DNA from: Escherichia phage SUSP2
Strand: one strand, 5' to 3'
DNA length: 64,000 nucleotides
Sequence record: KT454806
Below, piece after piece: positions 4,605 to 59,425 of this stretch. Position numbers and translations under genes: made by a program. The notes below the pieces were generated by a model. That model saw nothing but the letters and a program-made list of their open reading frames with translations, was not told where the DNA came from and made no database searches. Position 1 is the first letter of the stretch. Every line of letters begins with the position of its first letter.

Positions 4605-4792
4605 TCAACAATTTTCTAATAAAGTTTTATAAAGATTTTGCTTAACGACCCGCCTCACATGCCTATGCTCTTTCTTAATAAAGAGTGACCTCTTCTTGAC
4701 AGAGCGCCTATTCTTGTAGGTATTACTAGGATACTTATCATGAACCGGACAACAACTACCCGGATTTGTAAACTTGATAATCTCTCTTTTCA

Positions 4793-5896
4793 CTATTCAT
4801 AATCCCTAATAACGAGACCAACAGGGAACTGTAAAGACCCCTTACGAGTCATCTTCTGGAACTGAACCGTCAAAGGTTTCCCGATAAACTCTTCAGGATG
4901 TTCAGCAAGATACTGTTTCTTTTCATGGGTAGTTTTCCATGAAACATCTACAAAGACGTTAGGAAGAGTCTCTACAACGAACTTACCATGACCACGTTTA
5001 TCAGTCTTCACACCAGTTACTTTAAATTCTTCCGTGTGCATCTTCTTATGCTTAATCAGGAAGTAAGAACGGTGACCACACTCATAGAAAGATTCTGCTG
5101 AGATGGAACGGTACATTGCCCCTTCAAACTTCAGCTTAACCCAATTGTCATGGGCTTTGTCGAACTCTTCCCAAGAGTTAACACGGATAGTTTGCACAGG
5201 TACAACCCTACAAGCATCACCGAGTTCAACAATTGGAGAGTTATCAATGATTTCACGGCGCTCAGGCCAAGTTTTAGTTTTGTCACAGATATCATACCAG
5301 TAGAATTTAAGTAGGTGACGGTCTGGATTGTCAGCATTCTTAATCATAGACACGATATCTTCTAAATCCCAACCATGAGCATAGATTTCACCATCAAAAT
5401 CTTGAACTTGTGGGTGGCATTTAAGCATCAGAAGCAAGTCTGGAATTAACTCTTCAGGTACGTTGTACACAGTATTTTCACGGGAGTAAGCTGTGAAGTT
5501 CACTGAGTCAGCATCTCTTGATATACGGCAACGAACACCATCAAGCTTCGGTTGAGCATCAGCAGGGAACTTCAAATACTTGGCATGACTGACCTTTGCA
5601 GCATCTTGTGCAAGTTGTACACCAACCTTCTCAGTGTTCTCTGCTTCAGATTTTGTGTAAGCATAACCTTTACGGTCAACCTGTTTCTTGTACTTAGCAG
5701 CAACTTCAAAGAGAGCTTGCTGTTCAGCATTACGCTCATTCTTTTTACCGATGTTTTTCGGTTCTGCTGTGTACTCTTCAAACATCATCTTGCCATTTTC
5801 TTTGCCATACGTGGTAACAACTTTGTCACCTACAGCGACACATGACCAGACATTAAAAGAGCCATCTTTATTTTGTTTGTACAGAATTGTCATCAT
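4793..5896 (-). CDS. ATP-dependent DNA ligase
   Basis: PKLDGVRC matches ligase adenylation motif I (KxDGxR); about 370 aa as in T7/T4-type ligases; start chosen at internal Met overlapping upstream stop. Confidence 0.8.
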   Translation of the reverse strand: MMTILYKQNKDGSFNVWSCVAVGDKVVTTYGKENGKMMFEEYTAEPKNIGKKNERNAEQQALFEVAAKYKKQVDRKGYAYTKSEAENTEKVGVQLAQDAAKVSHAKYLKFPADAQPKLDGVRCRISRDADSVNFTAYSRENTVYNVPEELIPDLLLMLKCHPQVQDFDGEIYAHGWDLEDIVSMIKNADNPDRHLLKFYWYDICDKTKTWPERREIIDNSPIVELGDACRVVPVQTIRVNSWEEFDKAHDNWVKLKFEGAMYRSISAESFYECGHRSYFLIKHKKMHTEEFKVTGVKTDKRGHGKFVVETLPNVFVDVSWKTTHEKKQYLAEHPEEFIGKPLTVQFQKMTRKGSLQFPVGLVIRDYE

Positions 5897-6794: not shown

Positions 6795-7322
6795 TCAACT
6801 TAGTTTTGCAAACTCTCCGTGAAGTTTCATAGAAGCTTCACAGTAAGCTTTATGGGCTTCTTCAGGGGTGTCATAGTAGCCTAATGACATCTTTTTACCT
6901 TTATAGCTTATTTGCGCAACCCACCTACCAGACTTCTTCTTCAGGCTTACACCCTTATAGCCTGATTTATTGGTGGATAGTTTGCTTTTATTCCAAGCAC
7001 TTTGGCAGTCGTCTGCTTCTCTTAAGTTTACAATCCTGTTATCAAGGGAGTCCCCATTACTATGGTCAATAACACCTTTAGGTAACCTACCATACACGTA
7101 CAGCCATGCGAGTCTGTGCGCTTTATGTGCTTTCTTGTCAAAATAGATAGTAATCTGCTTATGACCAGTTGAGTCAATCTGGAGGCTTCCCGCTACCTGT
7201 CCTGCGTACTGGCTATTAAAAACTTTAACAGCCTTTGAGTCGCCCTCTCTACGAAGCCAAGTAAAGACCCCTATTTCGGGGTCATAGTGTAGTAGTTCCT
7301 TTAAACGTTCTTGTGTAATCAT
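6795..7322 (-). CDS. HNH homing endonuclease with AP2 DNA-binding domain
   Basis: HRLAWLYVYG..IDHSNGDSLDNRIVNLREA (HNH) followed by SGYKGVS..SGRWVAQISYKGKKMSLGYYDTPEEAHKAY (AP2); sits directly downstream of the DNA polymerase gene. Confidence 0.8.
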   Translation of the reverse strand: MITQERLKELLHYDPEIGVFTWLRREGDSKAVKVFNSQYAGQVAGSLQIDSTGHKQITIYFDKKAHKAHRLAWLYVYGRLPKGVIDHSNGDSLDNRIVNLREADDCQSAWNKSKLSTNKSGYKGVSLKKKSGRWVAQISYKGKKMSLGYYDTPEEAHKAYCEASMKLHGEFAKLS

Positions 7323-7332
7323 TTTGTCACCA

Positions 7333-10032
7333 TTAATGCACTTCCAACCACGATTTACCGACCTTACCAGTACCAGTTACCAGTGTTTTACTCTTTAGTC
7401 CTAAGTTCTTAGAGGCTTGCCCGTAATACCAATCAGTGACAGCCTTCACCTCTGCCGTCATACTTTCTGGACATTCCCAACTTGTCTCATCGTGATAGGA
7501 GCACAATAAACGAGCACCTATAGCTGGTTTACGACCGTTCAACTTCATCAAACCTTCGTCAATCATACGACGGCAAGCAAGGTTAATTGCCTCGTTCTGA
7601 ATCTGGCTTTCCGAACCCATCAGTAAGTAGTTCAATAGTTTGTGTGGAGATTTACACCACAACCATGCTCCAGCCACCTTGACAAAACCACCTTTAGAGA
7701 TTGCAGCAGTCTTACCAAATACTTCTTCAAGTGCTTTCTTAGTTGCTTTAAAGTCAGCTTCCAAGTTGTCTAACAGTTTCTTAATCTTCGGCAAACGCAC
7801 AAAGTAAGTCTGTTTAGTTAATGCACCTTCCTGAGTAGTCGCAGCTTTAATCGTCTTAGCAAACTTCTCATCACCAGCACCGAACAGTAACGCATAGATA
7901 CCATTCTTAGCTTTCTTACGACCTTTGCTAATTTCGTGAAGAAGATTTTCATCCTGAGTCATACGACAAGTCAAGATATCTTGTTCTTCATTCAAGCTGA
8001 AGTAGATACTGTTCAGTGTATGTGCATCAGTACCTGAGTAAACTACGTACAAGTCATTTTCAGAGTCGTAATGCAGATACTTATCAACTTCTGGATTCAG
8101 GTATTCGTCAAAGTGTTTGCAGTAGTATCTGCCATCTTCCTGACGGATAAACTCAATCTCTTCTTTACCCTGAGTTACTGCTTTGGTGAACTCTTTGTCA
8201 CCCATAAAGTTGCACAGTAAAACAAGTTGCGCTGAATTCATGTCAACGGAGACTACGTTTGTACCTTCTTCACAAATCCAGACTGCCCTCATTGGTTCAC
8301 CGTAAACAGCAGCCCCAGAAGGTACGTTCACGATTCCGTATTGTGTCATACGTCCAGTTGAAGTGCCAAACACCATTGCACCAGCACTCAAACGACCATC
8401 TGGACGAATCTGGTTTAACCAACCTTTTTCATCATCCTTTGAGTTCTCGATAGTTCTGCGTCGGTGCATCAAAGTATAGTACTTCGCAATCTTCTGTCCA
8501 AGTTCACCTTCAATCGTATCGTAAGATGATTCAGTCAGTTTCGGTGAAGTCCGAATCAAGCAAGGTTCAAGCAAATCTGTGTACTTCTTAACAGACCAGT
8601 TGTGTTCGATGTACTGTACACCTTCATGCTCAACATAGTTCAATCCGCAACGGTCTACCATCTCTTGCCATTTCGGATGTTTACGAATCATCTTCTTGTT
8701 GTCTTTGAAGCGACAAACCTTCACCGGACGACCATCAGAATCTTTCTTGTAGTTCCAGTCATCAGGAATCCAGCCAAGAGTTTTCAGATAATCCTTCACA
8801 ACCGCAACCTGAGTCATACGCGACACTTCGAACTCAATCGGTGTATAAGGTGCATCAATCAAACCTGTGTAACGACTTGACTCAAGTTCAAAGTGATTTA
8901 CTACGTGGTTGTTGTAGTACTTCACAGTCTTCACAGTCTTAACTGGTTTCCAGTCTTTGCACTTCTTATCAATCGCAGCATTCAACTCATTACAAACTGC
9001 ACGAGCATCTTTCATTGCAACGAAACCTTCTTTGTACTCTTCTCCAGTAACCGTGTTAGTCGGAGTGTAGCAGTTACGCTTCTCAATGTTGAAAATCTTG
9101 GTAGTCGGTTTACCAAAAGGCTTGATAGCGTAAGTCTGCATCTCACCATTGCGAACCTGCTGACGGAACTTAGTTTTTGGATACTTAGTGATACGCTTCA
9201 AACCATCTGCTTCACCAAATGTCTCAACATACTCGTTCCAAGCCCTTGCAAACTCTTCACCAGTGACTTTGCCTTTCGTCTTAATAGTTGGTGGCAGATG
9301 AGGCTCAACTTCAGCAGCTAATTCATCAGTCAGTCTGTCAAGTTCTTTGACATGGAACTGCATAAGTTCAATATCAGCTTTCCAACCGTTAATAGCTTGC
9401 TGACTCATCCAGAAAGATGTTTCTTTAGCTCGCATGTAGGTTTCGTAAGTGTCTACACCACACTTCTTCAGTTTCAGGTATTCATTATCAAGAGCACGTT
9501 TAGCTTTGGCGTTGATTCGAATATCCTCAACAACACGGTTCAGAATGTCAGCATTCCAGACACCCCACTCTTCAATTTCTGGTTTACGAACACCAACACG
9601 AGCACCCCATGCAGCCAAACCATGAGCACCTTTGTAACCTTTCGGTGTAGGTCTATCCATCCACTGAACACGAGACTGGATAAGAGAATCCTGAAAGAAG
9701 TCTCCCCAAGGTTTACACTTCGGATTGTCAAAGTTCCATAAGTCCGGTGCAATGTGATTGAACACCCACCAGTCATAGCCAAGACCGTTATGAATGCAGA
9801 GACGTTTTGCCTTAAGAGCAAACTCCACACCTTCACGAAGACCACCTTTGATGTACTTAGTACACTTGTGACCAAGGATAGGTTCATCGGTGAAGACCCA
9901 CACAGCAGGTTCGTCACTGTCATCTTTGTAATCTGCAAATGCCATTACGTGTGCTTTTGTGAACTCAAGGAGTAACCCATCAGTTTCGGTATCACCTACC
10001 AAGTGCAAGTTTTCAAAATCTACGTTTTCCAT
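7333..10032 (-). CDS. family A DNA polymerase with 3'-5' exonuclease domain
   Basis: 899 aa; exo motif VGDTETDGL; motif A VVSVDMNSAQLVLL; motif B KGRKKAKNGIYALLFGAG; motif C YHDE. Confidence 0.9.
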   Translation of the reverse strand: MENVDFENLHLVGDTETDGLLLEFTKAHVMAFADYKDDSDEPAVWVFTDEPILGHKCTKYIKGGLREGVEFALKAKRLCIHNGLGYDWWVFNHIAPDLWNFDNPKCKPWGDFFQDSLIQSRVQWMDRPTPKGYKGAHGLAAWGARVGVRKPEIEEWGVWNADILNRVVEDIRINAKAKRALDNEYLKLKKCGVDTYETYMRAKETSFWMSQQAINGWKADIELMQFHVKELDRLTDELAAEVEPHLPPTIKTKGKVTGEEFARAWNEYVETFGEADGLKRITKYPKTKFRQQVRNGEMQTYAIKPFGKPTTKIFNIEKRNCYTPTNTVTGEEYKEGFVAMKDARAVCNELNAAIDKKCKDWKPVKTVKTVKYYNNHVVNHFELESSRYTGLIDAPYTPIEFEVSRMTQVAVVKDYLKTLGWIPDDWNYKKDSDGRPVKVCRFKDNKKMIRKHPKWQEMVDRCGLNYVEHEGVQYIEHNWSVKKYTDLLEPCLIRTSPKLTESSYDTIEGELGQKIAKYYTLMHRRRTIENSKDDEKGWLNQIRPDGRLSAGAMVFGTSTGRMTQYGIVNVPSGAAVYGEPMRAVWICEEGTNVVSVDMNSAQLVLLCNFMGDKEFTKAVTQGKEEIEFIRQEDGRYYCKHFDEYLNPEVDKYLHYDSENDLYVVYSGTDAHTLNSIYFSLNEEQDILTCRMTQDENLLHEISKGRKKAKNGIYALLFGAGDEKFAKTIKAATTQEGALTKQTYFVRLPKIKKLLDNLEADFKATKKALEEVFGKTAAISKGGFVKVAGAWLWCKSPHKLLNYLLMGSESQIQNEAINLACRRMIDEGLMKLNGRKPAIGARLLCSYHDETSWECPESMTAEVKAVTDWYYGQASKNLGLKSKTLVTGTGKVGKSWLEVH

Positions 10033-56528: not shown

Positions 56529-57944
56529 ATGAGCGATTTATTTAAACATTCGCACCTTCATGCAGGGCGAACTGAAAATGGTGCTGTTAACCATACATCA
56601 TCAATGTCTGCCTTGGTAGACTTCTACAAAGCTGCTGGTTCAAGCCGTGGTAATGTAGAGATTCTCCCAGAGTTGTTCTACAAAGCTTTGCGTGAGGATG
56701 TTGATGTAGCAGTTCGTATTTTACTGCATATGCGAGATGTACGAGAAGGTATGGGTGAGCGTAAAGCTTTCCGAACTGTTCTCTTACAAGCAATCGAAGA
56801 TAACATTCTAGATTCTTTCCAAGTTCTTCGTATCATGGATAAGATTTCTGAATTAGGTCGTTTCGATGACTTCAAAATCTTCGTAGGGACTCGTTATGAG
56901 ACAGATGCTTTCAAGCATTTAGAAGCAGCTTTGTTAGACCCTGATACAGCAGGTTTAGCAGCTAAGTGGTTACCACGAGTAAAACCACGACACAAACAGT
57001 TTGTAAAACGTTTCTGTAAGTTTGCAAACCTGAGTGAGAAAGAATACCGTACACTGTTATCAGCTTTGTCTGATACCGTTGAACAGAAAATCTCTACAAA
57101 TAACTTTGGTGAGATTGACTACAGCAAGATTCCTTCACTGGCTGCTGCACGTTATCAAAAACTGTTCAGCAAAAAAGATGGTGAACGTTATGCAGCTTAC
57201 GTTGAAGCTTTATCCAAGGGTGAAGCAAAGATTAATGCTGGTGCTGTGTACCCATACGATATTCTGAAGTCCGTTAATCACGGTAAAGCAAACGTTGCAA
57301 ACGAACAGTGGAAAGTATTACCAAACTGGATGGCAGAAGGTGAAAACATTCTGTGCATGACAGACGTATCAGCTTCTATGACGTGGCAAACTTTTGGTGC
57401 TGTTACCGCTCTTGATATTGGTCTGTCTTTGGCGTTATACGTCTCAGAACGCAATACAGGGTGCTTTAAAGATGAGTTGATGGTTTACTCCACAAGACCT
57501 CACTTTATTACTCTGAGTGGTGATTTGCAGACTCGTATGCGTCAGGTAATGAACAAGGTTGAGTATGGTTCAACAAACCTGCAAGCAGCATTTGACCGCA
57601 TTCTTGAAATCGGTGTAAGAAATGGCTTGACTCAGGCAGCAATGCCAAGTAAGCTTATTATCTTCTCTGATATGGAGTTCAATCAGGTTGACGGTGCAGA
57701 TGGTTGTACAAACTTCGAAGCAATTCGTAGTAAGTACGAAAAAGCTGGATACGAAATGCCACAACTGGTATTCTGGTACTTAGCAAACCGTAATGGTACT
57801 TGCGAAGTGTCTGTTAAGGATAACGGTGTAGCAATGGTATCGGGGTTCTCTCCAGCCACTTTAAAAGCTCTGCTTGGTGGTGAGAAGTTTGACCCAATCA
57901 GCGTAATGCTCAAAGCAGTAATGATTGACCGTTACATCTGGTAA
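56529..57944 (+). CDS. vWA-domain protein, possibly Ro60-like (TROVE plus vWA architecture)
   Basis: 471 aa; MIDAS-like DVSAS in CMTDVSASMTW at about residue 277; TROVE assignment of the N-terminal 260 aa is tentative. Confidence 0.5.
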   Translation: MSDLFKHSHLHAGRTENGAVNHTSSMSALVDFYKAAGSSRGNVEILPELFYKALREDVDVAVRILLHMRDVREGMGERKAFRTVLLQAIEDNILDSFQVLRIMDKISELGRFDDFKIFVGTRYETDAFKHLEAALLDPDTAGLAAKWLPRVKPRHKQFVKRFCKFANLSEKEYRTLLSALSDTVEQKISTNNFGEIDYSKIPSLAAARYQKLFSKKDGERYAAYVEALSKGEAKINAGAVYPYDILKSVNHGKANVANEQWKVLPNWMAEGENILCMTDVSASMTWQTFGAVTALDIGLSLALYVSERNTGCFKDELMVYSTRPHFITLSGDLQTRMRQVMNKVEYGSTNLQAAFDRILEIGVRNGLTQAAMPSKLIIFSDMEFNQVDGADGCTNFEAIRSKYEKAGYEMPQLVFWYLANRNGTCEVSVKDNGVAMVSGFSPATLKALLGGEKFDPISVMLKAVMIDRYIW

Positions 57945-57992: not shown

Positions 57993-58110
57993 TTCTACAT
58001 AGAAACGAAATCGAGAGTTTTTCTAAGATACTGAAAAATATTTTAAAAAAGTTCTTGACAACCACTAAAAAATAATGTTAAAGTGGTTACATAGAGTTTG
58101 AAAAGATTAT

Positions 58111-58187
58111 CTCCGTTTAGCTCAGTTTGGTAGAGTGCGCCGTTTGGGGCGGTGAGGTCGAAGGTTCAATCCCTTCAACGGAGACCA
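58111..58187 (+). tRNA. tRNA-Pro (anticodon UGG)
   Basis: Hand-folded cloverleaf: acceptor ctccgtt/aacggag, anticodon loop tttgggg, T-arm gaagg-ttcaatc-ccttc, encoded CCA. Confidence 0.75.
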
Positions 58188-58194
58188 AATTAAT

Positions 58195-58272
58195 GTTCCA
58201 GTAGACAAATTGGTAAAGTCACCACACTTTCAATGTGGAGTTTTGAGGGTTCAAGTCCCTTCTGGAACGCCA
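58195..58272 (+). tRNA. tRNA-Glu (UUC)
   Basis: Acceptor gttccag/ctggaac, anticodon loop ctttcaa, CCA. Confidence 0.75.
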
Positions 58273-58355
58273 AATTTGACAGAAGACCAAGTACAGCAAA
58301 TAACTTTACTTTTCGCGCATAGAAAACTTAAAAGTTTGGTCTGGTCATAAAAGTT

Positions 58356-58432
58356 CGCGGGTATAGAGAAAGGGCGTCTCACATGTCTCATTAGCATGGT
58401 ATCGGCAGGTTCGACTCCTGCACCCGCCTCCA
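58356..58432 (+). tRNA. tRNA-like gene, anticodon CAU (Met/Ile2/fMet undetermined)
   Basis: T-arm gcagg-ttcgact-cctgc, anticodon loop ctcatta; 1-72 mismatch and unusual discriminator. Confidence 0.4.
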
Positions 58433-58514
58433 AATTTGCAGAAGACCGTTTACAGCAATCTCAAAAATTTTTATCGGAAAAAATGAAAAGATACGGTCTG
58501 GCAATACTAAACAT

Positions 58515-58591
58515 GGTGAGGAAGCACATAAGGCATGTGCGGTCGGCTGTTAACCGAATGGTATAGGGTTCGAATCCCTAACTCACCGCCA
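58515..58591 (+). tRNA. tRNA-Asn (GUU)
   Basis: Anticodon loop ctgttaa, T-arm taggg-ttcgaat-cccta, CCA. Confidence 0.7.
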
Positions 58592-58651
58592 AGATTTGGG
58601 AGAGAAGCGTAATGCTCACCGATTTGTAAGGTGCAAGTCCTTAGCCTGAAT

Positions 58652-58739
58652 AGAATAAAATGCGTCGTTATCCCGTAGATGGAAGCGGTGGTGACTGTAA
58701 ATCACTTGTCATTATGACTCGGTAGGTTCGACTCCTTCA
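58652..58739 (+). tRNA. tRNA-Tyr (GUA), long variable arm
   Basis: Acceptor gcgtcgt/acggcgc, anticodon loop ctgtaaa, 88 nt. Confidence 0.65.
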
Positions 58740-58745
58740 CGGCGC

Positions 58746-58823
58746 ACCAAATAAAGGTTATGTAGTTTAATCTGGTTAAAATACTCCCCTGTCACGGGAG
58801 ATGATGAGGGTTCGAATCCCTTC
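58746..58823 (+). tRNA. tRNA-Asp (GUC)
   Basis: Anticodon loop ctgtcac, stem ctccc/gggag, CCA. Confidence 0.75.
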
Positions 58824-59261
58824 GTAACCGCCAAATTTGAGAGGGCTTTTTAGCCCCTCCCTTAAAGAGTTCTTACGAGTATTCTTTAAAGGAGCAGAAG
58901 ACCAAATTCAGCAAGCCAACTTAAAAAATTTCAAGCCAATTTAATTTTGAAAAATTTAAAACTTGGTCTGGCTCAACAAATTTACAGAAGACCGTTTACA
59001 GCAAGTATAAAACAATCTATTTCTCTGGTAAAGAAAAGGCGAAGGTTCGATTCCTTCACACGTTACGGCGTGTTGGTGTAATGGTAGCACTTAAGATAAA
59101 ACAACGGTCTGGTAATCTTCTTTGCAGTGACTTATGGAGCTAAATGCCGTCCCATGAGTGCCGATGAATTTCCTTAGCATGATTCTAGATTAGCTTAATA
59201 GGAAATGACTCTACAAACCCTTTAGCAAGGTTTGCGTAGGTTACTGCAAAGATGATTTAAT

Positions 59262-59337
59262 GGGAGTGTAGCAGAATGGTGATGCGGCAGACTTTTAATC
59301 TGACAGGCGACGGGTTCGAATCCCTCCACTCCTACCA
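59262..59337 (+). tRNA. tRNA-Lys (UUU)
   Basis: Acceptor gggagtg/cactcct, anticodon loop cttttaa; weak T-stem. Confidence 0.6.
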
Positions 59338-59343
59338 AATAAT

Positions 59344-59420
59344 GGTTCAGTCGCAGATAAGGTAATGCAAGGGTTTCATAAGCCCTATGAATGTGGGTTC
59401 GAATCCCATCTGAACCTCCA
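59344..59420 (+). tRNA. tRNA-Met-type (CAU)
   Basis: Acceptor ggttcag/ctgaacc, anticodon loop ttcataa. Confidence 0.65.
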
Positions 59421-59425
59421 ATTAT

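Follow-up and report, generated by a model that had tools for sequence, protein, structure and literature searches.

Conservation of Y RNAs and Ro60 extends from bacteria to humans, yet what they do is only partly understood. To our knowledge, few bacterial or phage examples of this pairing have been studied. One of them, YrlA (Rfam RF02553), is a bacterial Y RNA that mimics tRNA and has a capped acceptor stem; Ro60/Rsr binds it in both Salmonella Typhimurium and Mycobacterium smegmatis, and 22 phages have been reported to carry it beside a Ro60 gene (Chen et al. 2014, PMC4201824). The tRNA-like fold is an RNase P substrate, the M. smegmatis RNA being cut by this enzyme, and YrlA modifications are tRNA-like, with pseudouridine 55 made by TruB and dihydrouridine by DusA (PMC4201824). 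In the small RNAs Yrl1 and Yrl2 of Thermus phage phiLo, a stem of the 5' and 3' ends flanks an internal loop with a short conserved motif (PMC12135203). A Ro60-like protein is also known from phage Bas63, whose gp130 counters the Ppl defence system; supplied alone, from a plasmid or from the T7 genome, gp130 allowed T7 to grow again on Ppl. The authors of that work suspected Y RNAs in the vicinity, writing that 'some tRNA genes are possibly Y RNAs' (PMC11482910). In the literature we searched, no Y RNAs are described for DUF2828-type proteins or Felix O1-like phages; the 22 phages of Chen et al. 2014 may already include some of the mycobacteriophage members discussed below.

We analysed a 64,000-nt stretch of DNA from Escherichia phage SUSP2 (KT454806; hereafter the window), in which an earlier note had singled out a permuted or fragmented tRNA-like element. 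We consider it probable, at roughly 70%, that this element is the tRNA-mimicking module of a YrlA-type non-coding RNA (ncRNA) linked to a Ro60-like protein. On the + strand, a T-arm (GAAGG-TTCGATT-CCTTC, 59041-59057), which can be read directly from the sequence and is recovered by Rfam and RNAalifold, runs into a capped acceptor-like stem, ACACGTT-ac-GGCGTGT (59058-59073), whose strands at 59058-59064 and 59067-59073 are separated by AC at 59065-59066. TG follows at 59074-59075, with T59074 as the U8 equivalent, and then a D-arm, GTGT-AATGGTA-GCAC (59076-59090). The parts that the earlier note described are all there: the T-arm followed by acacgtt (59041-59064), the pairing of acacgtt with gcgtgt through a short loop, and the D-arm-like sequence downstream. 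Its topology, a 3' tRNA half ahead of a 5' half joined at the acceptor ends, is correct and conserved, and the stretch from 59041 to 59090 has the order of T-arm, loop-closed acceptor-like stem and D-arm that characterizes YrlA. The two 7-nt strands of the acceptor-like stem are complementary, including two terminal G.U pairs; since only 2 nt lie between them, the stem that can form has 5-6 bp and a loop of 4-6 nt, and the minimum free energy (MFE) fold has 6 bp and a UACG loop.

Two further features bear on the tRNA likeness. An extra hairpin, TTTCT-CTGGTAA-AGAAA (59020-59036, + strand), corresponds to the 'V' stem-loop in YrlA terms and is aligned by Rfam as an anticodon arm. The earlier note had stated that no anticodon arm was present, which holds only in part, given this hairpin just upstream. 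The hairpin is specific to certain lineages: its loop is hypervariable in close relatives (GGT, TAT, ATG, ATA or a 6-nt loop), and it is absent from Michonne-type phages and most other lineages. The reported absence of CCA holds for SUSP2, where none follows ACACGTT-A, whereas N-CCA is encoded in Michonne-type phages, as G-CCA after a perfect 7-bp stem, and in about nine other lineages. A 7-bp stem followed by NCCA makes RNase P processing plausible in those lineages, and the coexistence of capped stems with stems of this second kind suggests that some members may be processed to nicked, possibly aminoacylatable tRNA mimics. Standard searches did not return a complete tRNA. ARAGORN called neither a tRNA nor a tmRNA in the SUSP2 region. 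The Rfam tRNA model gave a partial alignment of 59004-59057 to tRNA positions 9-63 (31.3 bits) with a mismatched D-stem and no acceptor stem, hence no canonical cloverleaf. Positions 25-83 of the Rfam YrlA model aligned to 59035-59092, below threshold, with 21.5 bits for SUSP2 and 28.7-39.3 bits for relatives against a gathering score of 69. A tmRNA reading was rejected, there being no G3:U70 (pair 3:70 is C-G), tag ORF or pseudoknots, and ARAGORN and Rfam being negative.

Absence from related phages, or lack of conservation there, had been named as grounds for dismissing the element. It is nevertheless retained in 244 of the 246 records of Felix O1-like phages that we compared, with identities of 74-98%. 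Across the Ounavirinae the acceptor-like stem occurs in three fully compensated versions (ACACGTT/GGCGTGT, ACTCGGC/GTCGAGT and ACCCTTC/GAAGGGT). In the wider comparison across lineages, all seven pairs vary on both sides. RNAalifold, applied to 17 homology-aligned Ounavirinae sequences with no structural input, predicted a closing helix, the T-arm, a 7-bp acceptor-like stem and the D-arm, and located the compensatory changes in the acceptor-like stem. The MFE fold of the SUSP2 sequence agrees with this structure; its single-sequence folding energy is unremarkable (z = -1.26). Among 28 elements, T-arm nucleotides G53, T54, T55, C56, A58 and C61 are invariant, and the equivalents of U8, G10 and A14 are at least 90% conserved. 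In the record of Salmonella phage SP116, all sequence from the acceptor stem through tRNA-Lys is missing; either at least one isolate is viable without the tRNA-like module or this record has an assembly gap.

The tRNA-like core sits inside a larger unit, here cassette 4, of 122 nt (58989-59110, + strand). Its ends form an 8-bp helix in which AGACCGTT (58989-58996) pairs with AACGGTCT (59103-59110), as predicted by RNAalifold on the 17 homologues and by the MFE fold, and a tail, GGTAAT, follows at 59111-59116. This end pairing stands at the position of the anticodon stem, as in YrlA, and the equivalent helix covaries in every other lineage. Two nucleotides after the 5' strand lies the motif CAGCAA (58999-59004, + strand), a candidate protein-recognition element judging by its position and by analogy to the GNCGAA/CGAA motif of YrlA and Yrl RNAs. 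The YrlA motif itself, GNCGAAN0-1G, has a sole match in the SUSP2 element, GGCGAAG at 59038-59044, which falls in the T-stem and reads GGAGAAG in close relatives.

Three shorter + strand cassettes lie upstream, sharing the stem and motif but enclosing a short A/U-rich loop in place of the tRNA-like core. Cassette 1 (58284-58342), in the tRNA-Glu/tRNA-Met interval, reads AGACCAAG-ta-CAGCAA ... TTTGGTCT; cassette 2 (58443-58499), in the tRNA-Met/tRNA-Asn interval, AGACCGT-tta-CAGCAA ... ACGGTCT; and cassette 3 (58899-58969), conserved in the alignment of relatives, AGACCAA-att-CAGCAA ... TTGGTCT, each followed by G. Cassette 1 occupies the same position in Bas63. Cassettes begin about 7 nt past the CCA of a tRNA and stop about 10 nt short of the next. 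Upstream of the first tRNA, a consensus scan placed a sigma-70-like promoter (58055-58084, + strand; TTGACA-18-TAAAGT with TG), the probable start of the cassette-carrying transcript. Downstream of cassette 4, a separate structured RNA domain (59114-59259, + strand) has a long closing stem and three inner hairpins and ends at the 5' end of tRNA-Lys; RNAalifold on ten homologues gave 49 pairs, six with compensatory changes, and in Felix O1-type phages the interior differs while the closing stem covaries. We also considered the repeated CAGAAGACC..CAGCAA as sigma-70 promoters and rejected them, as they were not called by the consensus scan and their spacing to -10-like hexamers is inconsistent; each CAGAAGACC copy pairs with a downstream GGTCT, which identifies the copies as helix strands. 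A candidate fifth cassette at 61695-61903 falls within a protein-coding ORF and was discarded. In the GenBank records sampled, no RNA gene is annotated over the tRNA-like element, where there is either nothing or small ORF calls of doubtful value, and PhageMaP reports nothing for bas63_0137/0138, the ORFs that overlap the RNA.

Just before the tRNA cluster, on the same strand and about 1 kb upstream of cassette 4, lies a gene for a 471-residue protein (56529-57944, + strand), the orthologue of Bas63 gp130 and the presumed protein partner of the RNAs; bas63_0130 occupies the same position in Bas63. By sequence, Pfam at E<=10 found only DUF2828 and DUF7788, and neither phmmer nor a profile search returned a Ro60 match among PDB sequences. 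The protein belongs to PHROG 850 ('RNA-binding protein'), and mycobacteriophage members of the same protein family carry the annotation 'Ro-like RNA binding protein'. Its AF2 model (pLDDT 87.8) retrieved Ro60/Rsr/TROVE structures as all of the top 11 Foldseek PDB matches, over the full length, with E values from 1e-8 to 3e-6 and TM scores of 0.47-0.65; the Thermus-phage Ro60 structures 9KOP and 9L5Y are among the top matches. AF2 secondary structure places a ring of helical repeats ahead of a vWA domain with an invariant MIDAS-like motif, D279-x-S281-x-S283. The relationship to Ro60 is visible only at the level of the predicted fold, and to that extent the element has the same-strand Ro60 neighbour of a YrlA gene. 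Because gp130 alone suffices on Ppl, the one known phenotype of the protein does not require these RNAs.

To place the cassettes in a wider context, we sampled 75 diverse non-Ounavirinae phage loci (1.3 Mb) chosen for encoding a DUF2828-type protein; beyond such loci, cassette frequency was assessed in T5 and in the rest of the 64-kb window. An initial generic cassette descriptor was too noisy (406 matches versus 256 versus 170) and was replaced by a stricter one, which gave 115 matches on the gene strand versus 9 on the opposite strand and 4.3 in shuffled sequence. At least one cassette was present in 54 of the 75 loci, and 80 of the 115 cassettes lay within 1.5 kb of the gene; these descriptors found none in the other 21 loci or in KVP40. 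The counts are lower bounds, since the strict descriptor misses non-AGR helix bases (UGGAC in Snenia) and the CUGCAA motif of the L016 group. Linkage extends to loci that lack tRNA genes: in 19 of 37 such loci a cassette lies no more than 2 kb from the gene, in all cases 25-390 nt away. Cassettes occur both upstream and downstream of the gene, in up to 3-6 copies per locus, and their modules are interchangeable. In the mycobacteriophage Snenia, the gap after the Ro-like gene holds a short, a tRNA-like and a further short cassette, all with CAGCAA and with no GNCGAA in the gap. Listeria phage LP-064 and Campylobacter phage F360 have cassettes just upstream of the gene.

The tRNA-like core was traced separately. 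In 1.9 Mb of shuffled DNA, a descriptor of T-arm, self-complementary stem and D-arm matched once; in the loci of unrelated phages it picks out elements that are not part of ARAGORN tRNA genes. The combination of C[AC]GCA[ATG] with a closing helix of 6-9 bp accompanies 21 of 31 permuted cores versus 61 of 3000 random positions (2%). In a set of 21 diverse elements, both partners vary at 19 of the 21 base pairs, while the T-loop and the C-G-C-A core of the CAGCAA motif are invariant; a pairing figure of 99.8% is circular, because the elements were selected by the descriptor. The covariance model (R1) was built from length-normalised sequences (A5); a MAFFT alignment of contiguous cores (A4) misaligned the 3' halves. 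The SUSP2 score of 55 bits is circular, its element being in the training set, and for the tRNA-like cassette of Snenia R1 gives 43 bits and the Rfam YrlA model 39.3 bits. At 30 bits or more, 22 of 23 R1 matches outside tRNAs have the motif and helix (one of the 22 is doubtful) and none of the nine overlapping ARAGORN tRNAs does; four of the elements found by R1 are new and lie outside the training set. T5 served as a negative control: the 50 kb examined contain no homologue of the gene, and its tRNA cluster has no stem-plus-CAGCAA cassette and no R1 match above that of an ordinary tRNA junction. Five pattern-scan candidates (L015, L023, L027, L032 and L033) proved to be merely adjacent normal tRNAs, and the L016-group and L047 loci have no DUF2828 homologue in the 6-13 kb examined of their 54-184 kb contigs.

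These comparisons bear on the two names that the earlier note had put first. A circularly permuted tRNA gene would pass through circularisation or ligation and cleavage of the acceptor loop to yield a decoding tRNA, here with anticodon GGU, for threonine. The 3'-then-5' order with complementary acceptor strands fits this, as do the 5-bp stem and 7-nt loop CUGGUAA upstream, the G-CCA of Michonne-type relatives and the polynucleotide kinase that SUSP2 encodes. However, the supposed anticodon changes between close relatives and its arm is lineage-specific; that arm already stands upstream of the T-arm, and the downstream D-arm would need joining through a degenerate second 'D-arm'. The unit ends in a helix of 7-9 bp, long spacers and CAGCAA instead of an anticodon stem, it has neither a bulge-helix-bulge motif nor, in SUSP2, a CCA for the mature 3' end, and its sister cassettes put non-tRNA inserts into the same stem and motif. 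A decoding tRNA is thus unsupported, and we judge its chances to be very remote. It is likewise highly improbable that the element is a decayed, functionless remnant of a tandemly duplicated tRNA gene whose two copies lost their outer halves. Permuted tRNA genes are generally held to have arisen by tandem duplication; phage tRNA clusters abound in duplications, pseudo-tRNAs and scars of homing endonucleases; short direct repeats flank the core (AAGTATAAAACAA / AAGATAAAACAA); and SP116 has lost half of the element. Yet a pseudogene would hardly be kept in 244 of 246 records, with its acceptor stem fully compensated in three lineages while the tertiary nucleotides of the T- and D-loops stay invariant, and the same architecture recurs with unrelated stem sequences in Mycobacterium phages and many uncultured phages, all of which contradicts decay.

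The earlier note's other suggestions, a processing signal or a tRNA-derived small RNA, come nearer, but the evidence favours a tRNA-mimicking module of a YrlA-type ncRNA linked to the Ro60-like protein. The first suggestion corresponds to a cis-acting element of the tRNA precursor or of the Ro60-like mRNA, such as a site at which nucleases enter or stop, an insulating spacer or an autoregulatory element in a UTR, as opposed to a free-standing RNA partner. Cassettes fit closely between CCA ends and the next tRNA, in other phages many are found where a UTR element would be, 25-80 nt from either end of the gene, and a tRNA-like fold is an RNase P substrate (PMC4201824). Nevertheless, cassettes on both sides of the gene, in 3-6 copies with interchangeable modules, fit independent small RNAs better than one UTR function; the 19 loci with cassettes but no tRNAs have none to process, and the T5 tRNA cluster does without cassettes. 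We consider a purely cis-acting role unlikely; it would be compatible with protein binding. A stand-alone decoy for host nucleases or modifying enzymes that target tRNA, acting independently of the Ro60-like protein, would draw on the proposal that phage tRNAs counter tRNA-cleaving defences (cited in PMC11482910), on the L-shape nucleotides that the core retains and on its lack of a cleavable anticodon loop. Such a decoy leaves unexplained both the closing stem and CAGCAA shared with cassettes that have no tRNA-like part and the tight linkage to the gene in tRNA-less loci, and seems to us quite unlikely. An element acting as DNA (a cruciform, recombination site or origin) would be served by the same compensatory changes, which maintain a hairpin in DNA no less than in RNA, but G.U (G.T) pairs are tolerated only in the + strand reading, the strand bias of 115 to 9 is strict, and the invariant positions are the tertiary contacts of tRNA T- and D-loops; its probability is close to negligible.

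Under the YrlA-type reading, the ncRNA would be some 120-130 nt long, extend from about 58985 to 59116 on the + strand and have the architecture of YrlA. Its ends (AGACCGUU/AACGGUCU) would pair in place of the tRNA anticodon stem, with CAGCAA after the 5' strand, then the T-arm, an acceptor-like stem capped by a loop and lacking free ends, and the D-arm. It would be one of four paralogous 'stem + CAGCAA' cassettes inside the first tRNA operon, three of them holding a short A/U-rich loop, a relationship comparable to that of YrlB and YrlA. The cassettes may be co-transcribed with the tRNAs and freed as discrete RNAs by ordinary tRNA processing, through RNase P cleavage at the 5' end of the next tRNA and RNase E cleavage or trimming past the preceding CCA. 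The Ro60-like protein (56529-57944) would bind the closing stem and CAGCAA, leaving the variable module to present a tRNA shape to host factors. That module might hold an exoribonuclease or another effector in place, much as Y RNAs tether PNPase; it might divert tRNA-directed enzymes as a decoy, or shield the RNA against decay. A role in counter-defence is conceivable.

If this reading is right, the locus supplies one or more candidate RNA partners for a Ro60-like phage protein whose Bas63 orthologue, gp130, has an experimental anti-defence phenotype against Ppl. The signature of closing stem, CAGCAA and variable module finds candidate RNAs by the same protein family in very different phages and connects these RNAs to the 'Ro-like' loci of mycobacteriophages. 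It also corrects the annotation and accounts for some of the sequence between the tRNAs in the clusters of Felix O1-type phages. Going further, we tentatively entertain the possibility that the divergent Ro60-like protein and its modular 'stem + CAGCAA' RNAs make up an undescribed ribonucleoprotein system in hundreds of phages, whose modules might recruit or decoy host RNA-directed enzymes as a counter-defence or RNA-surveillance-hijacking device. Hosts named for such a system are Enterobacteria, Mycobacterium, Listeria and Campylobacter, along with those of many uncultured phages. Its small RNAs would be cut from tRNA operons or gene flanks, with the tRNA mimic as one interchangeable module. 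Were this so, it would account for how gp130-type proteins act and would amount to a programmable device.

Several known systems share features with the SUSP2 element. The permuted tRNA genes of the red alga Cyanidioschyzon merolae rely on a bulge-helix-bulge motif, a circular intermediate and eukaryotic/archaeal splicing enzymes to yield decoding tRNAs. In them too, the 3' half is encoded ahead of the 5' half and the acceptor ends connect the two, whereas the SUSP2 element has neither a conserved anticodon arm nor that motif and its hosts are bacterial. Two-piece tmRNA of alpha-proteobacteria and cyanobacteria (Rfam clan CL00001) likewise has a permuted gene order, with the T-arm and 3' acceptor strand before the 5' acceptor strand, but the SUSP2 element has a full D-arm. 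Among phage tRNA clusters, that of T4 encodes the species 1/2 RNAs, which are stable, tRNA-like and obscure in function. T5 has RNA1, RNA2 and RNA3, annotated in NC_005859. Like the SUSP2 cassettes, the T4 and T5 RNAs are small, partly tRNA-like and located between tRNA genes, and they are stable; in the stretch examined, T5 differs in having no stem-plus-CAGCAA cassette, no permuted core of T-arm, acceptor-like stem and D-arm, and no Ro60-like gene. The phiLo system resembles that of SUSP2 in pairing a phage protein of Ro60 fold with adjacent small RNAs, but Yrl1 and Yrl2 carry CGAA and are not described as tRNA mimics, and binding and a PNPase complex were shown there by experiment (PMC12135203), while the SUSP2 system is deduced from sequence comparison. 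YrlA differs in having GNCGAAN0-1G where SUSP2 has CAGCAA, and its outer helix and motif region fail to align with the SUSP2 element, whose predicted partner is DUF2828/DUF7788, not TROVE by sequence, and whose RNAs sit in a tRNA operon. With YrlA the SUSP2 element nonetheless shares the entire sequence of parts: a 5' strand with its motif, an optional V hairpin, T-arm, capped acceptor-like stem, D-arm and 3' strand. It is accompanied by shorter paralogues free of the tRNA domain, as YrlA is by YrlB, and some phage lineages have a 7-bp stem and CCA like M. smegmatis YrlA.

The best explanation of the tRNA-like core at 59041-59090, from its sequence and that of its relatives, is a tRNA-mimicking module within a YrlA-like non-coding RNA, a putative partner of the upstream Ro60-like protein. 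Direct reading of the window bore out the order of parts described in the earlier note: T-arm (GAAGG-TTCGATT-CCTTC, 59041-59057), 3' acceptor-like strand (ACACGTT, 59058-59064), AC linker (59065-59066), 5' acceptor-like strand (GGCGTGT, 59067-59073), TG junction (59074-59075) and D-arm (GTGT-AATGGTA-GCAC, 59076-59090). The 428-nt gap that holds the element is flanked by tRNA-Asp (58756-58833) and tRNA-Lys (59262-59337) and falls within a cluster of 25 plus-strand tRNA genes called by ARAGORN (58111-63578), which calls no tRNA at the core. A consensus-type prediction places a sigma-70-like promoter at 58055-58084. Escherichia phage phiSUSP1 (Ounavirinae, Felix O1-like phages) shares 98.8% identity with the window over this region, and related GenBank records leave the gap without annotation or fill it with small 'hypothetical protein' calls.

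The earlier note saw no anticodon arm. It overlooked a 5-bp hairpin with a 7-nt loop, CUGGUAA, just upstream of the T-arm (59020-59036) and preceded by a badly mismatched 'D-arm'; the Rfam tRNA model matches only partially here (59004-59057, model positions 9-63, 31.3 bits). This hairpin cannot be a working anticodon, because its loop differs among close relatives (GGT, TAT, ATG, ATA or 6 nt) and the Michonne type lacks it altogether. Conservation, on which the note had made its proposal depend, was clear: 244 of 246 related records carry the element at 74-98% identity. In a homology alignment of 14-17 relatives, the acceptor-like stem occurs in three fully compensated versions: ACACGTT/GGCGTGT (the window, Suspvirus and most Mooglevirus), ACTCGGC/GTCGAGT (Felix O1 type) and ACCCTTC/GAAGGGT (Michonne and Mijalis, with an 8-nt loop and the 3' strand followed by G-CCA). 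Given 17 sequences and no structure input, RNAalifold returned four helices, namely a closing helix (AGACCGU/ACGGUCU), the T-arm, the 7-bp acceptor-like stem and the D-arm. The minimum free energy fold of the window forms the same junction plus this upstream hairpin, at an unexceptional energy (z = -1.26). In Salmonella phage SP116 (NC_027329, locus L003, 601-700), a deletion from the acceptor-like stem through tRNA-Lys removes the 3' half of the element and fuses the T-arm and the 5' part of cassette 4 (58989-59110 in the window; see below) to tRNA-Met. Either the phage is viable without the tRNA-like module or its record is misassembled.

The core belongs to a family of cassettes, each a closing helix with a CAGCAA motif. 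There are four copies of CAGAAGACCnnTTnCAGCAA in the window and none elsewhere there (0.02 expected by chance), each followed after 50-115 nt by the complement of AGACCnn and then G, which defines four cassettes. Cassettes 1 (58284-58342), 2 (58443-58499) and 3 (58899-58969) enclose a short A/U-rich stretch, and these three module-less paralogues stand beside cassette 4 (58989-59110), which encloses the tRNA-like core. Cassettes 1 and 2 start about 7 nt past the preceding tRNA's CCA, and about 10 nt separate the end of cassette 1 from the following tRNA; from this proximity we infer that they would be released by normal tRNA processing.

Between cassette 4 and tRNA-Lys lies a separate structured domain of about 145 nt (59114-59259), in which a long stem closes around three inner hairpins and the central ATTCTAGATT is invariant; of its 49 predicted pairs, 6 show compensatory changes. 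Its Felix O1-type counterpart has a different interior and a covarying closing stem. No Rfam family matches the window's domain. In phage Bas63 (MZ501086.1, locus L134, 2949-3223), two small opposite-strand 'hypothetical protein' ORFs, bas63_0137 and bas63_0138, overlie cassettes 3-4 and this domain and are probably spurious ORFs annotated on top of RNA genes; wV8, ESh19-22 and others carry comparable annotations. Directly 3' of tRNA-Asp, a G+C-rich hairpin without a T-run (GAGAGGGC-ttttta-GCCCCTCC, 58839-58862) is kept in all relatives; lying between the tRNA block and cassette 3, it may act in processing or stability.

The cluster also holds tRNA-like genes that ARAGORN did not call. One, a tRNA-Tyr(GTA) whose variable arm is long (58664-58750), scores only 22.8 bits in Rfam and is annotated as tRNA-Tyr or tRNA-OTHER in relatives; just upstream (region 58592-58660), an isolated T-loop-like GGTGCAAGTCC at 58630 is possibly a tRNA remnant. 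Three further genes, at 59864-59983 (acceptor strands GGTCAAG/CTTGACT), 60126-60207 (ATGGGAC/GTCCCAT) and 60214-60370 (ACCCCTT/GAGGGGT), have N-CCA ends, good T-arms and complementary acceptor strands, and are too large or irregular in form, at about 120, 82 and 155 nt. The second has a Trp-like CCA anticodon loop; Rfam detected only 60127-60201, as a weak tRNA-Sec-like match (22.4 bits). phiSUSP1 encodes a polynucleotide kinase (locus L049, 11584-12279; record 61584-62279) and has no annotated RNA ligase. Together, the kinase, the Ro60-like protein and at least 25 tRNAs hint at an RNA-repair or anti-tRNA-nuclease toolkit.

The gene upstream of the cluster (56529-57944, plus strand, 471 aa) stops 166 nt before the first tRNA. 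Its product has matches to two Pfam families, DUF2828 and DUF7788, and to PHROG 850 ('RNA-binding protein'); it has no Pfam TROVE hit and matches no sequence of a solved structure, even with a family profile. A confident AlphaFold2 model (39 homologues, pLDDT 87.8, pTM 0.87) places a helical-repeat domain at the N terminus and an alpha/beta domain with an invariant DxSxS motif at the C terminus. On the basis of this model the product is a divergent Ro60-like protein, since Foldseek puts Ro60/Rsr/TROVE structures in all of the first eleven places among PDB matches, aligned over the full length (E 1e-8 to 3e-6), among them Xenopus and human Ro60, Deinococcus Rsr and Thermus phage phiLo Ro60; isolated vWA domains appear only at E > 1e-3. 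The Bas63 orthologue, bas63_0130, occupies the same position. Its product, gp130, is reported to resemble Ro60 structurally and to counter the Ppl defence system; by itself it rescued T7 on Ppl hosts (PMC11482910), a phenotype for which the RNAs are therefore dispensable.

We then looked at 80 IMG/VR loci encoding relatives of this protein, chosen for gene presence from at least 596 contigs encoding one; 75 are non-Ounavirinae, with proteins 38-48% identical. A core descriptor (T-arm, 7-nt strand, loop, complementary strand, D-arm) found cores outside ARAGORN tRNA genes in many loci, on the gene's strand except for one weak match, against one match in 1.9 Mb of shuffled DNA. Their flanks share a plan. 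On the 5' side, a strand of 6-9 nt (often AGGAU..) is separated by 1-4 nt from CAGCAA (more rarely CCGCAA, CAGCAU or CAGCAG), and a spacer leads on to the core; on the 3' side, an A-rich spacer precedes the complementary strand and G, with a tail that is often UGAUAA or UGUUAA. Motif and closing helix accompany 21 of 31 cores compared with 2% of random positions. When these 21 elements were aligned in fixed register, the T-loop and CAGCA were invariant and 19 of 21 pairs varied in both partners and showed 3-6 pair types apiece; this diversity is the informative part, because the elements were selected for pairing and their 99.8% pairing is circular.

R1, a covariance model built from 28 length-normalised cores, scored the window's element highest (55 bits, high by construction); the second match (24.6 bits) is an ordinary tRNA junction. 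The covariance search suggested in the earlier note thus yields one such element in the window. At 30 bits or more in the 75 loci, motif and helix accompanied 22 of 23 matches outside tRNAs (one doubtful; four elements new) and none of nine overlapping ARAGORN tRNAs, eight of which span two adjacent genes and one a single tRNA. A strict cassette descriptor (AGR-helix, 1-5 nt, C[AC]GCA[ATG], complementary strand, then G; core optional) gave 115 gene-strand, 9 other-strand and 4.3 shuffled matches, with at least one cassette in 54 of 75 loci and 80 of the 115 within 1.5 kb of the gene; these counts are lower bounds, as the descriptors miss non-AGR helix bases and the CUGCAA motif. Cassettes mostly span 55-65 nt, or 107-139 nt with a tRNA-like core.

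Cassettes are not a mere feature of tRNA clusters, being present in tRNA-less loci, where 19 of 37 have one less than 2 kb from the gene, every one at 25-390 nt. In the 50 kb of T5 that we examined, which has no homologue of the gene, the tRNA cluster (25 tRNAs and several RNAs annotated as 'tRNA-like stable RNAs') contained no cassette and no R1 match above a tRNA junction. A tblastn search located the protein family in 708 phage records out of 50,697 (grouped on the opening word of each organism name: Escherichia 118, Mycobacterium 95, Salmonella 77, Vibrio 56, Listeria 54, Staphylococcus 42, Campylobacter 40, and others), and mycobacteriophage annotation calls it 'Ro-like RNA binding protein'. 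In Mycobacterium phage Snenia, the 380-nt gap 3' of the gene holds two short cassettes (5463-5513 and 5665-5719) and a tRNA-like one (5524-5651; 43 bits with R1 and, across the whole model, 39.3 bits with Rfam YrlA), all with CAGCAA and helices UGGAC../..GUCCA-G; the gap has no GNCGAA. Just upstream of the gene, Listeria phage LP-064 has three cassettes and Campylobacter phage F360 two; none was detected beside the gene in Vibrio phage KVP40. LP-064 (locus L132) also carries, among tRNAs 1 kb upstream of the gene, a ROOL RNA (RF03087; 2429-2980; 87.4 bits, gathering score 99.1) and, 1.3 kb downstream, an RtcB-like RNA ligase (6813-8024), an RNA-repair-type neighbourhood reminiscent of the Salmonella rsr-yrlBA-rtcBA operon.

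tRNA-like cores also occur in two other settings. In L016, L019, L025, L028 and L043 (54-136-kb IMG/VR contigs of another phage group), the same cassette family has a variant motif, CUGCAA, with the helix GATTAATA/TATTAATC around a tRNA-like core whose T- and D-arms are identical to the window's, and a short CCGCAA cassette comes after it (AGATTCCAA/TTGGAATCT); no Ro60-like gene was found in the 6-13 kb examined. L047 (reverse strand, 4680-5600; from a 183,648-bp IMG/VR contig) has five consecutive units, three with permuted tRNA-like cores, that start with GUGMUGAWAG..GAGWUACUUCG, a conserved leader of their own, end with CUACUUKCC and lack CAGCAA; they look like another family of repeated RNAs around tRNA-like modules, unrelated to the first.

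These observations bear on other accounts of the core. The earlier note's circularly permuted tRNA, taken as a decoding molecule, is contradicted by the missing conserved anticodon arm and by a closing region of the wrong nature. A decayed duplicate is contradicted by covarying stems and by recurrence in unrelated phages, and a DNA-level element is contradicted by strand bias and strand-specific G.U pairs. A purely cis-acting processing or UTR role is possible for some copies; it is compatible with protein binding and does not exclude it.

The YrlA-like reading draws on a known plan. YrlA-type Y RNAs comprise a 5' GNCGAAN0-1G motif, an optional V stem-loop, a T-arm, an acceptor-like stem-loop and a D-arm, with ends at the site of the would-be anticodon stem; their genes neighbour Ro60 and share its strand (Chen et al. 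2014, PMC4201824). The window's element has this topology and genomic context but fails at the sequence level: Rfam YrlA (RF02553) gives its core a sub-threshold 21.5 bits (model positions 25-83), and the YrlA outer helix and GNCGAA region are unmatched in alignment with phage elements. Independently identified elements in L111 and L109 also score below threshold (38.9, 31.4 and 28.7 bits). We therefore do not place the element in the curated YrlA family, its motif and score failing and its putative protein partner not being recognised as TROVE by sequence; some mycobacteriophage members may already be called YrlA in the phage list of Chen et al. 2014. In M. smegmatis, YrlA has a 7-bp stem, is cleaved by RNase P and receives CCA (PMC4201824). 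About ten phage lineages, Michonne and Mijalis included, have a 7-bp stem followed by NCCA, and by analogy RNase P cleavage may turn these into nicked tRNA mimics; the remaining lineages, the window's included, have tight 2-6-nt loops on the stem. Y RNAs tether Ro60 to PNPase (PMC4201824, PMC12135203), and the tRNA-like module could similarly tether or decoy tRNA-directed host factors, or shield the RNA from decay. Longer cassettes in tRNA-less loci carry other multi-hairpin modules, so the family is modular, with a constant stem and motif and a variable module, as in Y RNAs.
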